From NCBI GenBank assembly GCA_030648055.1, contig JAUSHI010000007.1:1-47620 (forward strand): a stretch of DNA of 47,620 nucleotides. Direction: 5' to 3'. Made by a program: the position numbers and the translations under genes. Shown in pieces: positions 7,953-14,443 of the stretch (within the stretch, counting starts at the first letter, position 1; each line of letters opens with the position of its first letter). The notes under the pieces are model-generated. The model was not told where the DNA came from, did not search any database, and was given only the letters and a program-made list of their open reading frames with translations. This DNA comes from a bacterium (lineage in GTDB: Bacteria > Patescibacteriota > Minisyncoccia > Sungbacterales > SURF-37).

Positions 7953-9689
7953 TTATTTTACTTCCTTCTCAATATCCTCAATTTCTTTTCTAACAAATTT
8001 TTCAGCGTCGTCTAAATCTTTCCGTAATTGTTTAATGATTTTTTCTTCCTCTTCAGTGAGCTGACGCTTGGTACGCGTTTTTTCAAGCATTTTAATCTGT
8101 TCGCGAATGGCTTCCTTTAATAAATCAAATGCTTTATGAAGCGCATGTTCGGCTTCGCGGATTTCCTTTCTTACTCTTTTCCGCATAGTCGCAAACTTAT
8201 GCCACCAATGCCACGCCAAATACACAAGAAGAAGCACGAGCGCAATAAGCGGAATAACTACCGAAAGAAATCCTACAGCCCATGAACCGATGCGGAGAAA
8301 CGCGGGTCGCTCCACCGCTATAGTGACTTTTTCGCTCGGTTCACTTCTTGCGCCTCGCTCATCCACTACTTCCGCCCACGCTGTGTAAATGCCACTTGAT
8401 AATCTATCCTCGGCGACAAAAGTAAATCTTCCATCTTTGTCGCTTTTCACTGAATAACTTTTAGCTTCATCCTTTTCGTGTTGAAGAAAAATATTTACTT
8501 GAGCGTCTGGATATTTGGTTTTTCCTTTGATACTAAGAATTTCGCCGCTCGCGAGCTCCCTGGGATAATCAGTAATTGTTGGCGGTTCTAACGCCTGAAT
8601 AATGAACTCCGCAGAATTCGCAAAAGAGTTGCCGGCTTTATCCACTGCTTTTGCGATCAATGTATAGCTTCCTGGCCCTAAAGCAGGAGTTTCATATCTA
8701 TGGCTTCCATCATCTCGCCATACTTGCGGACTTTCGTTGCCGATTTGAACCTCATAGTGGCCTATACCAGATGTTTTGTCGCTCGCGTCAAAAATAAATT
8801 TTGCTCTAGGTTCGGTCAAATCTACTCGCCTTACTTCGGAAAGATCAAAACGGCTCGGCTTTTCAGTATCAATCTGAAAGCGAAAACGAGAAATTGATCC
8901 CCATCCCGCGCCATTACGCAAACGAATGCTAAAATACCAAATGCCATCTTCAAGTTTGTCCAATTCTTTTGAATTTATTGCCGGAATGTAAGCAACAGTG
9001 GGAACTGCGTTGGGTATTCTTCCTACAAGCAAACGGGCCCCGGTCGCATCCGCCGGCAACGCCCAAGCAAATTTGGCAGTACTCAATGGATACCATTTTG
9101 TTGGATCGGGATGCGTTGGCGACGATATTTCTGGCGCGGACGGCGTACCCGGTTCTCCTGGCGTCACTGCTTCTGGTGCCCCGGATTCTACGGCTCCTCC
9201 CAAACTGAATTGCGCGTTCCCTAAACTTGAGAGAATGTTGGTGCCTTGTCCGTCGTTAGCAAGCACCGAGCCGGAAGAAAAGTTCAGCGTGGCAACGCCA
9301 GCCGCCTTTACTCTAAAATTTACCGTAATGAGTTTTCCGTTGGCTCCCGTGAACCCCGGATTAAGCGCGATACCTTCAAAATTAACCGCGCCGGCACTGT
9401 TGGAAAACGACGGTTCCTGGACCCATAAACTAAAAATTGAACTCGTTTTTGAAAGCGATTCCACCACTAATTTATCACTGGGAAAGGAGATAACACCGGA
9501 AGCCGCATTCATTGCTTGATCCGCGCTTGAGACATATATACTCGCCGTGAAGGTAGTGCCGACTGCGTGTGTTCCCGAAGAAGGAGAAAAATATAAAGCC
9601 GCCGCTTGAGCAAATTGCGGTGCTATTATCAAAAACGTAAAAGCAAAAAAGGCAGATGCGAATATTTTTATGTACGCTTTTTTCTCCAT
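7953..9689 (-). CDS. secreted cohesin-domain protein with Ig-like domains, TM helix and C-terminal coiled coil
   Basis: signal peptide; cohesin-like AALYFSPSSGT...NAASGVISFP...LWVQEPSF; TM near C-terminus; start set to ATG 9689. Confidence 0.75.
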   Translation of the reverse strand: MEKKAYIKIFASAFFAFTFLIIAPQFAQAAALYFSPSSGTHAVGTTFTASIYVSSADQAMNAASGVISFPSDKLVVESLSKTSSIFSLWVQEPSFSNSAGAVNFEGIALNPGFTGANGKLITVNFRVKAAGVATLNFSSGSVLANDGQGTNILSSLGNAQFSLGGAVESGAPEAVTPGEPGTPSAPEISSPTHPDPTKWYPLSTAKFAWALPADATGARLLVGRIPNAVPTVAYIPAINSKELDKLEDGIWYFSIRLRNGAGWGSISRFRFQIDTEKPSRFDLSEVRRVDLTEPRAKFIFDASDKTSGIGHYEVQIGNESPQVWRDDGSHRYETPALGPGSYTLIAKAVDKAGNSFANSAEFIIQALEPPTITDYPRELASGEILSIKGKTKYPDAQVNIFLQHEKDEAKSYSVKSDKDGRFTFVAEDRLSSGIYTAWAEVVDERGARSEPSEKVTIAVERPAFLRIGSWAVGFLSVVIPLIALVLLLVYLAWHWWHKFATMRKRVRKEIREAEHALHKAFDLLKEAIREQIKMLEKTRTKRQLTEEEEKIIKQLRKDLDDAEKFVRKEIEDIEKEVK

Positions 9690-10549
9690 AATTTCTTTGT
9701 CATGAATATCGCAATGACGACTCCTATTATAATAATACTCCAATTCTCGTAATTTTCGTACCAGCGAAGCGGATTCTGCGGCGGAATTTTTTCCGTTCGT
9801 ATATTGCCAGCTTTATCAATCGCTTTCACAAAAACATAGCTTTTCAACTTTTGATCTCGTAATACATGCGGGCTTTCCGCTGAAGTCCACCTTGAAAACG
9901 ACCCCAAAATTCTGTGCCGCACCTCTTTTATTTCGTAGCGGTCAATGCCTGATTTTTTATCTTGTGTCGCAAAAACCAAAAACCACTTACCGTCAAATAT
10001 GGCTGGGTCGCGCGCAATCTCTGGCTTAAATGATTCTGGCGGTTCTTCGTCCTTTATCTTTTTCAGAGACAAAGGCAACGCTTGAGCTGTAACCGCAACC
10101 TCAAGAGGAGACGCGGAAATATCAACTTCGCTGCCCGAGCCATCGTTGCGAAGGACTTTTATGCTCTGCATTGCAATCCTGCCGATTCCTTCTTCTTTCG
10201 CCAAAAAAGTAATTTTAAAGATAAGACCTCTTTTGCCAATAAATCCGCCCGGCGTGATGCCGGAAAAAAAGATTTCGTTTGCGGCGCGAAGCGTCGGCCG
10301 TTCTACCCAAAAATTAATAAGAGAGTTCCCGTCGTTTAATTCTTTGAATTCTAAAATGTCAGCCGGAAATCGCAAAATACCCTCAATAGCATTAACGTTC
10401 TCGCTTTCCGCGTTCAAGAAAACGCCGATTTCAAATTCGGTATTCGCCTTAACTTTTCTGGTATCGGCGTCATAAAAAATCTCCGCCGCAAAAAGATGGT
10501 GTGGAAAAAGAAACGATATGCTTAACAAAATAAATAAAATCTTTTTCAT
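9668..10549 (-). CDS. cohesin-domain protein with C-terminal membrane anchor
   Basis: signal peptide; NAIEGILRFP..LEFKELNDGNSLINFWVERP..IFFSGITPGGF; C-terminal TM and basic tail. Confidence 0.75.
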   Translation of the reverse strand: MKKILFILLSISFLFPHHLFAAEIFYDADTRKVKANTEFEIGVFLNAESENVNAIEGILRFPADILEFKELNDGNSLINFWVERPTLRAANEIFFSGITPGGFIGKRGLIFKITFLAKEEGIGRIAMQSIKVLRNDGSGSEVDISASPLEVAVTAQALPLSLKKIKDEEPPESFKPEIARDPAIFDGKWFLVFATQDKKSGIDRYEIKEVRHRILGSFSRWTSAESPHVLRDQKLKSYVFVKAIDKAGNIRTEKIPPQNPLRWYENYENWSIIIIGVVIAIFMTKKLWRKKRT

Positions 10550-10556
10550 ATTTGAT

Positions 10557-12028
10557 TTATCCTGTCCAATAAAATGCCATTATTGAAAAATCAACCAGAT
10601 TAATTTTCCCATCTCCATTAAGATCAATGTTGGCAGGCGGCGAAGGACGCTTATACCAATAAGCCGCGATAGAAAAATCAACCAGATTTACCCTTTTATC
10701 AGAATTCATATCGCCCTTCGCGGCCGCCTTTGGAAGTTCGGCCGCGATATTTTTTGTGCCAACCGAAAAACTAATCGCTTTGCTAAAAGAGCTAATCGCT
10801 CCGTCGCGGGCCGCCTTAGATTTTGTAAAATGCTGACCCATATCAAGTTGGGTTGTATCAAAATTGTAAAGATACGCTCCGTTTGCATCCGCGTTGATTT
10901 TATTAAAAAATTCCTCGTCCGAACTCACAGATATTGTAATTTCGCCACTTGGCGCGCTTTGTCCAAAAATCGCAATGTTATCTCCGCGCTTCACTTCGCT
11001 TTTATCAACCGCGATAGTTGGCGCAATAAAAACACCGCCGATATTAGTCGTGGCGCCGCTCGTTACGCTCACAGGAAAAGTCAAAAGAGAAGACCTTATG
11101 CCTTTTGAATCTTCGCTATAAATGGCAAAAATATAATTTCCGCCAGAAAGACCGCTAATGGTCGTAGAAAAATTTGCGTTGGCGTTAGCTATCGTGGTCG
11201 CGGCTATTTGGGCATCTTTAAGAATAGTGACAGAACTTTTTGGATAAGCCCTTCCGCTAAAACTCACAGCGGTCTGTGGCGCGCTATATCCGCCACCGCC
11301 CCCGCCTCCTCCACCGCCCCCACTACTGGATGGAGTGGGCGTAGGCGTGGGAGCAGGATCGGCCTCATCATTATCGCTTGTTGACGAGCATCCCGGATCG
11401 GCAGAATAATCTGTTTTCCCGTCCCCATCATTATCAACGCCGTCGGAGCATGCCGGCGCTCCCAAAATACCAAACGAACTGAAAGTTGAGGTGGCGAAAG
11501 TAATAGTGTTCGCGGTTGTATCCACCGTGCTTCCAGAAATTAAACTCCATGAAGAATCACTGGCGCCCATGCGATACGGTTTTATTGTGCTTTCATTAAG
11601 TCCGCTCACCTCAGAATCCAAATAATGCATTACAATCGTGGGGGCGGAAGATAAGGTTGATACCGAACCTCCTGTAGTAGTAAAAAAAATGAAATCATAT
11701 GGCTTACCAACAAAGCTTTTGCCGGAAGGCGGAGGTTTTTGCGACTCAAAAGTGGCTTGATCGTATTGAAATATTTTTAGTTCGAGATTCTCTGAATAAA
11801 AATTTGCCGGGAGTGTAAAGTTAACTTGCGTATTGTCAACTGCCGTAAATGTAAAATCCCCGCCACTGCTAAAAGAAAGGGTTGTGGTGGCGGTTTTTTC
11901 AGGAACAAAAGCGGAGATGGTTACTGACCCAGTTGTGGCAAAAACAAAATTATTGGCATAGAACAAACCACCCGCTAAAATAATTATTAAAAATAGGAAA
12001 TTTTTAGTTTTTTTTTACCCCGCATCAT
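10557..12028 (-). CDS. secreted dockerin-domain protein, frameshifted at an A9 tract in its signal peptide
   Basis: C-terminal paired GDMNSDKRVNLVDFSI / DLNGDGKINLVDFSI; CSDGVDNDGDG Ca-binding motif; PT/G linker; ATG 12028 is out of frame with body by one base. Confidence 0.75.
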
Positions 12029-12031
12029 ATT

Positions 12032-13063
12032 TTATTGAAATTTGCCAGCTTGCGCTTTTTTAATAATCCAGCGGTTGTATTTTTTAAGTCCAAACCAGCC
12101 GCCCAGACCCAAAACGGCCAAGATAAGTGCAATGATACTCAACAACTGCCACGGGATAACAAAAAATCGGTAGCTTGTCTCGGCGGTTTTATTGTCGTTA
12201 CCGTAGGTCAGGTTTAATTTCGCGCTGTATAATCCAAACGCAAAATTGCGCCATTGATTGCTGACGGACGAGAAAAATCCGTGGTTTTCTTCTGCGCCCT
12301 CTGCCGGTGACGAAAATACCGCGAGCTTATCCTGCCCTTTTTCAAACCACACGACCTTAAACTTACGAATGCTTCCCGGCAAAACATTGCCATTCCCGCT
12401 ATTGGCATCCAGCGTTGCCGTGGTAAAACCAAATAAGTTTTTAATCTTTAGTTCGCCGGTTGGTTTCACTCGCTCACTCCCATCATTTGAAAAACGATAC
12501 GCAAAAGTTATGGGGAAAAAACTCGCCACCCGACTACCTTCATCTATCTTCAAATCTAAAAGACCGCCGCCTTCTTTCAACTCGCCGGTAACGCTCAAGA
12601 GAACAAGCATGCCAAGTTTTCCGCTCACAGACACCTGTTCTCCTCCTTGTCGCCCCGGCGGAGAGGTGCCCCAAAAAATCGCGGCAAAATACCCGCCAGC
12701 TTCAACGCCTTGAGGTATTTGAATCGTGTAGGGAATTATTTTGCGCTCGTCTGCCTTCAAAACAACATTATCTTGAACAGTGACCCACGAAGCAAGCCCC
12801 TTTGTTGTGTCGGGTAAAAAATAAGGCGCGCCCGAATCGCCACGCGCTTCAAAATTTGCCGCGGAAGAATAAAAAGTTTTTGTTTCGCCCTGCTCGTTAA
12901 AAAGTTCAATTTCGCCACGCAGTGTTTGGCCCGGATCGCCTGCGATCTCCATCCTCACGGGGGAGATTGTCAAAGCCAAAACAGGCCCCGTTAGAAATAC
13001 AAAACCCCCCATTACACATAGGGCTATTATTACATACGACTTTTTTGTGCAACTTTTAATCAT
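12032..13063 (-). CDS. DUF916/DUF3324-like WxL-interacting membrane protein
   Basis: signal peptide then LTISPVRMEI..PGQTLRGEIELFN..LASWV..IPYTIQIP..GGYFAAIF; C-terminal TM; alternative TTG start 13075. Confidence 0.7.
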   Translation of the reverse strand: MIKSCTKKSYVIIALCVMGGFVFLTGPVLALTISPVRMEIAGDPGQTLRGEIELFNEQGETKTFYSSAANFEARGDSGAPYFLPDTTKGLASWVTVQDNVVLKADERKIIPYTIQIPQGVEAGGYFAAIFWGTSPPGRQGGEQVSVSGKLGMLVLLSVTGELKEGGGLLDLKIDEGSRVASFFPITFAYRFSNDGSERVKPTGELKIKNLFGFTTATLDANSGNGNVLPGSIRKFKVVWFEKGQDKLAVFSSPAEGAEENHGFFSSVSNQWRNFAFGLYSAKLNLTYGNDNKTAETSYRFFVIPWQLLSIIALILAVLGLGGWFGLKKYNRWIIKKAQAGKFQ

Positions 13064-13087
13064 AGATGGAAACAATTTCTAACGGGG
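12986..13087. repeat. 102-bp element with perfect 13-bp inverted repeats overlapping a gene start
   Basis: CCCCGTTAGAAAT (12986-12998) / ATTTCTAACGGGG (13075-13087). Confidence 0.7.
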
Positions 13088-14418: not shown

Positions 14419-14443
14419 AGAGAGAGAGAGAGAGAGAGAGAGA
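14419..14443. repeat. (AG)12 dinucleotide microsatellite
   Basis: 12 perfect AG units plus A, intergenic. Confidence 0.95.

Follow-up and report, generated by a model that had tools for sequence, protein, structure and literature searches.

The DNA analysed here, a stretch of 47,620 nucleotides that we refer to as the window, is contig C2 of a 614,506-base genome in 9 contigs with a GC content of 45% (G000). Its minus strand carries a co-directional cluster of genes encoding, in order, a 947-aa protein, a 351-aa protein, a 347-aa protein, a dockerin protein, and two membrane-anchored proteins with weak matches to cohesin (Table 1). The dockerin domain is of type I (PF00404; 28.9 bits against a cut-off of 22.9), and the protein belongs to a large Patescibacteria family whose homologs carry names such as Patescibacteria, Wolfebacteria and the like. 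The 293-aa protein encoded downstream of the dockerin gene is a candidate partner for the dockerin. Upstream, the 347-aa gene is syntenic in four related loci (L002, L008, L093 and L175) and matched no Pfam family above threshold; the upstream genes likewise gave no WxL or DUF916/DUF3324 Pfam matches, even at E-values up to 5. Only three nucleotides part the stop codon of the 347-aa gene from the first start codon of the dockerin gene, and this spacing suggests that the two genes are co-transcribed. A promoter and terminator scan of the operon returned the same counts as shuffled sequence, with no signal between the 347-aa gene and the ATG.

A (TC)12 repeat is also present in this cluster, at 14419-14443 of the window (minus strand), ~170 nt upstream of the 351-aa gene. 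The repeat again has 12 units in a species whose dockerin protein is 77% identical, in three assemblies (L002 631-654, L003 631-654 and L006 105-128), its length being invariant despite a dS above 1 and no detectable mismatch repair. Such constancy suggests that the repeat is a functional element and not a hypervariable switch.

Table 1. Features of the dockerin locus, in window coordinates
Feature	Position	Strand	Remarks
Tandem ATG start codons (two)	12023..12028	-	3 nt past the stop of the upstream 347-aa gene; same in L002-L007 and L175
A9 tract (T9 on the plus strand)	12008..12016	-	AAA AAA AAA in the ATG frame
Short ORF in the ATG frame	11987..12028	-	MMRGKKKLKISYF plus stop; expected product without slippage
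Remainder of the predicted signal peptide, shifted frame	11937..12008	-	TKNFLFLIIILAGGLFYANNFVFA, by frame translation; hydrophobic core and V-F-A cleavage motif
Dockerin protein body	10557..11966	-	469 aa as called; dockerin type I domain at residues 417-463
Upstream co-directional 347-aa gene	12032..13075	-	Signal peptide and C-terminal membrane anchor
Downstream 293-aa membrane-anchored protein	9668..10549	-	Weak cohesin-like match (PF00963, E 0.027, below cut-off)
Downstream 596-aa membrane-anchored protein	7953..9743	-	Big_13 (PF19077, E 6.9e-14); weak cohesin match (PF00963, E 0.0018, below cut-off)

A run of nine adenines parts the start codon from the signal peptide

Read along the minus strand, the stop codon of the upstream gene (TAA, 12034-12032) is followed by AAT, by the codons ATG ATG CGG GGT (12028-12017), by nine A (12016-12008) and then by CTAAAAATTTCC. 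The frame set by the ATG codons reads MMRGKKKLKISYF and ends at a stop codon (11989-11987) after 13 codons; a first-pass annotation of this DNA had foreseen the stop, and its count of about 12 codons was one short. The frame that begins with ACT at 12008 reads TKNFLFLIIILAGGLFYANNFVFA and runs on, with no stop codon in between, into the ORF at 10557-11966. With a tenth A in the run, which amounts to reading ACT from 12008, the ATG codons would instead open MMRGKKKTKNFLFLIIILAGGLFYANNFVFA, followed by TTGSV... and continuous with the dockerin ORF. This read-through product has the charged n-region, the hydrophobic core and the V-F-A cleavage motif of a Sec-type signal peptide, which can be read from the sequence directly (MMRGKKKTK / NFLFLIIILAGGLFY / ANNFVFA). 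Gene callers place the start at a TTG (11966-11964) that falls inside this signal peptide.

The run therefore lies at the junction between the ATG frame and the frame of the signal peptide and ORF, as is expected where transcriptional slippage joins two frames, and it is a simple repeat near the beginning of a surface-protein coding sequence, placed in the n-region of the signal peptide. The same letters hold a heptamer that is slippery for the ribosome, A_AAA_AAA, in the zero-frame register (GGT AAA AAA AAA CTA), and a shift of -1 on it reads ACT next. The minus-strand sequence thus bears out the first-pass description of an A9 that puts the dockerin gene out of frame within its signal peptide, as frame translation does the claim that one extra A would give a textbook signal peptide continuous with the 469-aa ORF. 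The tract is also, as was proposed, slippage-prone in length and located in the n-region.

The layout recurs in relatives

An out-of-frame run of exactly nine A was present in 11 of 11 contigs, which represent four lineages (the window and L175; L002-L007; L027 and L028; L094) and two leader sequences. These contigs derive from several samples and assemblers (MEGAHIT k141, JGI and Logan assemblies, and the MAG). L175, a Logan assembly of SRR13727527, is 99.9% identical to the window gene and has the A9 too, and the 77%-identical species, represented by six ENA/JGI assemblies (L002-L007), reads ATGATGCGGGGT-A9-CAAAAAATTTCC, again out of frame. We distinguish leader type 1, ATGATGCGGGGT-A9-C, from leader type 2, which is ATGAACAATTTGCAT-A9-C or TTGTGT-A9-C. 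L094 (ATG AAC AAT TTG CAT-A9-C TTTCAAAATA) and L027 and L028 (TTG TGT-A9-C TTTCAAAATA) are more distant members of the family, with another N-terminal domain and another leader than the window gene. In these the run is likewise AAA AAA AAA in the frame of the start codon and the signal peptide lies one base off, and the same frame correction is needed in all four A9 lineages.

Orthologs without the run are in frame (L008, which reads MQCKSRIFKNFLFLIIILAS, L092 and L093). The shifted-frame signal peptide of the window is homologous to the in-frame signal peptides of these orthologs (KNFLFLIIILAS in L008) and has the V-F-A cleavage motif in common with them, and their in-frame state identifies the window's shifted frame as the ancestral signal peptide. 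In a protein search, the called N-terminus of several close homologs also began in the middle of the signal peptide. The sample of lineages sharing the A9 is small, at four. Among 80 metagenome loci that we surveyed, only L027 and L028 added A9 leaders, and 80 loci from GTDB species genomes yielded no further ones, which shows that the A9 leader is not a widespread device; a homolog was found in just one other of the 12 genomes in the GTDB family.

In the in-frame ortholog L008, a second ATG lies 5 nt upstream in another frame (ATGAAATGCAATGC; ~2335-2346) and opens a 15-codon ORF that ends at a TAA equivalent to the stop of the short ORF in the window. Out-of-frame, overlapping start codons may date further back in the history of this leader. 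A further run, an in-frame A9 (ATG GAA AAA AAA ATA), was observed in another lineage, in the signal peptide of the cohesin-like neighbour (L021 4101-4109 and L023 2576-2584), and most A9 runs seen in the fetched loci sit in signal-peptide n-regions.

Runs of nine are scarce in a genome that apparently lacks mismatch repair

Across G000, A/T runs of length 7 (n = 580) and length 8 (n = 159) are common, and the counts then fall abruptly, to 8 runs of length 9 and a single run of length 10. Those of the nine long runs that lie inside genes keep the frame, the exception being 12008-12016; the A10 (C5:52386), for instance, is in frame in a P-loop protein and reads MEQKKNYY. The run at 12008-12016 is also the only A/T run of at least nine in the genome that parts a start codon from a long ORF, and a genome-wide scan at A runs of at least 8 found no second site with this layout. 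That the separation of start and ORF is unique among the nine runs, and yet recurs in relatives, indicates that the layout is more than chance.

Lysine is coded by AAA 73% of the time in G000. Among 78 KKK tripeptides in ORFs of at least 150 codons, the spelling AAAAAAAAA was seen 2 times against 30.7 expected, and the spellings AAGAAAAAA and AAAAAGAAA were each ~2-fold over-represented, with AAG used in its place. AAAAAAAAG, which contains the ribosomally slippery A_AAA_AAG, was mildly depleted (7 against 11.2 expected). In an in-frame homolog whose leader resembles that of L027 (P0023), KKK is written AAG AAA AAA. Unbroken A9 is selected against in ordinary coding DNA and is kept perfect where frame correction is needed, and its strong depletion, set against the mild depletion of AAAAAAAAG, indicates what is probably a polymerase-level problem with runs of nine.

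Neither MutS (PF00488) nor MutL (PF01119) domains were found in G000, and MutS (PF00488) was found in 0 of the 12 genomes of the GTDB family, while 11 of 14 control genomes did give a match. The family apparently lacks MutS/MutL mismatch repair. Since a tract should change length easily where mismatch repair is missing, its constancy at nine suggests that the length is held by selection, or at least by a strong equilibrium at nine.

The run is nine wherever it was found

The first-pass annotation had taken the tract for an ON/OFF switch for the linker of the surface complex, here OFF. As phase variation at the DNA level this would mean that replication slippage flips the tract, with A10 or A7 ON and A9 OFF, and that the sampled populations are mostly OFF. 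Several features of the locus invite this reading: phase-variable surface-protein genes classically have a homopolymer in their 5' coding region, tracts should be mutable in a genome in which MutS and MutL were not found, and a consensus contig would hide a minority of A10 cells. Neisseria pilC has a poly-G tract in its signal-peptide region. The vaa gene of Mycoplasma hominis is ON with A8 and OFF with A7 or A9, and it switches at 1e-3 to 1e-4 (PMC524362). As in vaa and pilC, the homopolymer studied here stands at the 5' end of a surface-protein gene, tract length sets the frame, and mismatch repair is limited. Unlike vaa, for which clones differ (7, 8 or 9), the tract here is nine in every assembly and lineage examined, with no ON allele found.

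We looked for such an allele by comparing the read-through N-termini of the window gene and of L027, separately, with a collection of 5.8 billion protein clusters. Neither leader type had an in-frame N-terminus among these 5.8e9 clusters. The window query returned solely the window's own truncated call, and the L027 query retrieved nothing but in-frame relatives whose n-region differs (MKKNQLITY...). Had any of the four lineages carried an A10 allele, gene callers would have annotated it as an ordinary protein and the search would have picked it up. A difference in repeat length with both ON and OFF alleles was thus not seen, either among the 11 contigs from four lineages, all of them exactly A9, or among the protein clusters. 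Furthermore, the ON state should be easy to reach without mismatch repair if it were ever favoured, yet it was never the consensus, and the neighbouring (TC)12 keeps its length between species, which implies that simple repeats in this operon are not hypervariable. Of the proposed switch, the tract and its slippage-prone length hold, but heritable switching gained no support from the comparison. RNA polymerase slippage, which the same annotation had named as one option, is in line with a fixed A9 read at the RNA level. We consider phase variation the main alternative but an unlikely one, since an invariant A9, the lack of an ON allele and constrained genes (below) fit a fixed A9 decoded in RNA better than a flipping tract.

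The dockerin gene is constrained and its locus looks mosaic

A frameshift that is fixed could also reflect loss of function, in which an ancestral in-frame A10 lost one A and left the gene silent or nearly so, a state tolerated or favoured without functional recoding. Poly(A) frameshift alleles of the Listeria inlA type are a precedent for such loss. A one-base deletion in A10 is among the commonest mutations where mismatch repair is missing, the A9 leader is rare within the family, and no stimulatory elements were found (below). A silent gene, however, would have gathered stops and further frameshifts, whereas the ORFs are intact in all four A9 lineages (469-505 codons). Moreover, dN/dS was low between A9-bearing pairs at dS above 1.2, namely 0.13 for the window and L002 (dS 1.23) and 0.18 for L027 and L094 (dS 1.39), and these pairs were no more relaxed than comparisons of an A9 lineage with an in-frame lineage (dN/dS 0.09-0.18). 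For the window gene against its close relatives, dN/dS was 0.09-0.17. Branch values from three taxa, split by hand from pairwise distances, were ~0.08 for the window, ~0.2 for L002 and ~0.1 for L012, far below 1. Intact ORFs and the lack of any branch with dN/dS approaching 1 make long-standing pseudogenes unlikely, and loss of function appears to us an improbable account of the run.

In comparison to the gene as a whole, which is 75% identical between the window and L002, the junction at 12087-11990 is 93-97% identical, and an 80-nt block at ~11560-11480 is 100% identical between the two. Given this high-identity junction block in a mosaic-looking locus, recombination could have carried the A9 between the window and L002 lineages, in which case their shared run would not be old. 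Leader type 2 is independent of this junction block.

Elsewhere in the family, N- and C-terminal halves swap freely, as seen in P0121-P0125, which have one N-terminus and different C-termini. Together with the high-identity blocks, this swapping indicates that mosaic recombination is probably frequent in this dockerin family.

Other starts and assembly error

Initiation might also occur elsewhere, at TTG 11966 or a near-cognate codon, in which case the protein would have a truncated signal peptide or none, and the ATG-A9 segment would be only a short upstream ORF. Gene callers chose the TTG start (P0001, P0005, P0006 and P0010), and the 13-codon ORF ends 20 nt before this TTG, so that re-initiation is conceivable. 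Starting there, however, leaves only FYANNFVFA of the signal peptide, with which a dockerin surface protein is predicted to be unable to reach the surface by export. In L008, L092 and L093 the signal peptide is complete and in frame and carries the same cleavage motif, and in L027 and L028 the signal-peptide frame holds no ATG, GTG or TTG for >100 codons, which means that an alternative start cannot make that protein. These two observations rule out TTG 11966 as the normal form, and the suggestion that a short secreted form from this codon might be the norm among orthologs did not hold; initiation elsewhere is altogether very improbable.

An assembly or sequencing error that conceals a real A10, the possibility against which the first-pass annotation had cautioned, is scarcely credible and can be ruled out, for although some sequencing platforms make errors in homopolymers, A9 is seen in all 11 contigs, which come from different samples and assemblers, and the other in-gene A/T9 runs and the single A10 of the genome keep the frame, as they would in an assembly without a general homopolymer problem.

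A fixed run that may be decoded at the RNA level

The explanation that we prefer, and to which we assign about even chances, is that the A9 is fixed in the genome and its frame corrected at the RNA level, with reduced expression, either because RNA polymerase adds one A or through a -1 ribosomal shift. The genomic tract would then be stably A9 and the start codon permanently one base out of frame, and the full secreted dockerin protein would arise only from expression events that are frame-corrected at the RNA level. By the first route, RNA polymerase would slip on the nine-base rA:dT hybrid and add one A, yielding an A10 mRNA. By the second, the ribosome would move back one base on the slippery heptamer A_AAA_AAA. 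Both routes would lead to the same protein, MMRGKKK-TKNF.... Because the run would encode the Lys-rich n-region of a signal peptide that is cleaved after export, slippage products with KK, KKK or KKKK should all be working signal peptides, and the mature protein should be identical whichever product it came from, with no trace of the event. The likely effect would be an output of the proposed dockerin adaptor that is reduced, and roughly fixed, relative to the co-transcribed upstream genes. We infer slippage, its dominant route and its stoichiometric role from the leader anatomy, the invariance of the A9, the constraint on the gene and the avoidance of A9 in the genome.

Nine is the length of the transcription hybrid, and the run in Thermus thermophilus dnaX is A9 and that in Shigella flexneri mxiE is T9. 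Bacterial RNA polymerase produces mRNAs with extra nucleotides at runs of 9 A or T (PMC5009743), and insertions climb exponentially with the length of an A/T run (PMC5574713). Transcriptional slippage joins two frames in dnaX, in mxiE and in tssM of Citrobacter rodentium and Yersinia (A11), the run of Citrobacter tssM restoring the frame in this manner (PMC4256274; reviewed in PMC5009743). As in these genes, an A/T run of about the length of the RNA:DNA hybrid lies exactly at the frame junction in the window, the genomic sequence is permanently out of frame, one added base is required for the full-length product, and the downstream frame is conserved. Relatives also keep the out-of-frame layout while their downstream ORF stays intact and under constraint, as expected of recoding. 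Unlike in these genes, the proposed slippage would take place within codons 1-7, in a signal peptide that is cleaved off, and there is no functional short product, whereas dnaX and tssM use both products. The host differs as well, being an uncultivated Patescibacteria bacterium from a group for which we found no recoding report.

Poly(A) frameshifts in the reduced genomes of Buchnera and Blochmannia are described as being rescued by polymerase infidelity (cited in PMC5009743; PMC3017870). The window gene resembles these in its small genome with limited DNA repair, and in having a poly(A) frameshift that persists across lineages in a gene under purifying selection. In contrast to those genomes, which are very AT-rich and have many long poly(A) tracts, G000 has 45% GC and strongly avoids A9, so that the tract stands out as an exception and is no part of a genome-wide load.

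The ribosomal route also has known counterparts. Programmed -1 frameshifting on A_AAA_AAG or A_AAA_AAC occurs in E. coli dnaX and in IS1 and IS3-family transposases. In common with these systems, the zero frame of the window gene has A_AAA_AAA, and a -1 shift would give exactly the predicted signal peptide. Unlike them, the site lies only 4 codons past the start, and we found neither a downstream hairpin nor an upstream Shine-Dalgarno-like stimulator at a suitable distance. Neither flank of the run in the window, nor any flank tested in L002 and L094, folded into a stimulatory structure distinguishable from shuffled sequence (z -0.8 to +0.3), and the two leader types had no conserved Shine-Dalgarno-like element at a spacing that favours -1, GGGGT abutting the run only in leader type 1 and being absent from type 2. 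Lacking both a stimulatory structure and a conserved Shine-Dalgarno-like element, the sites argue weakly against an efficient -1 ribosomal frameshift. The milder depletion of AAAAAAAAG than of A9 across the genome argues in the same direction.

An 11-bp long-range stem that ends at the run in the window and L002 was considered and rejected, as it was not significant and had no counterpart in L094.

Implications for proposed surface-complex adaptors

The conserved frameshift at a perfect A9 inside the signal peptide is confirmed as real, and it lies in a bacterial group for which no report of such recoding was found in the literature; our literature search found no paper mentioning both transcriptional slippage and Patescibacteria. 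Automatic annotation starts these genes at the internal TTG, or misses them, and what is probably a secreted adaptor in a surface complex of Patescibacteria consequently enters the record as cytoplasmic or not at all.

If the A9 is decoded by slippage, ultra-small, repair-poor bacteria would tune the dosage of a surface protein by recoding at the RNA level, and a start codon followed by a perfect A9, with the shifted frame encoding a signal peptide, would be a signature by which further cases could be recognised. A genome that purges A9 fifteen-fold, set against one gene family that keeps it, also provides a testable handle on the cost of polymerase slippage.

More tentatively, and with less than even confidence, we propose that in Patescibacteria lacking MutS/MutL a perfect A9 in a cleaved, Lys-rich n-region could be a selected RNA-level attenuator of fixed length, in which polymerase slippage would set the fraction of transcripts that encode exportable dockerin. 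Such an element would have persisted, or arisen twice, in two leaders while A9 was purged elsewhere. It would be the first programmed recoding site in the CPR, and the first at which any in-frame slippage length is equally functional and leaves the product unmarked.

Other homopolymers were observed in the same genome. A G14 run (G000:C4:964-977; C14 on the coding strand) lies in frame in an open span of 412 codons, codes there for consecutive prolines (...DLSHPPPPQVV...), and is a candidate length-variable tract. Two intergenic runs, a C11 and a G7-T-G11, lie at G000:C9:57466-57476 and G000:C5:119576-119586, respectively, the C11 run ~13 nt downstream of a TATAAT-like box.
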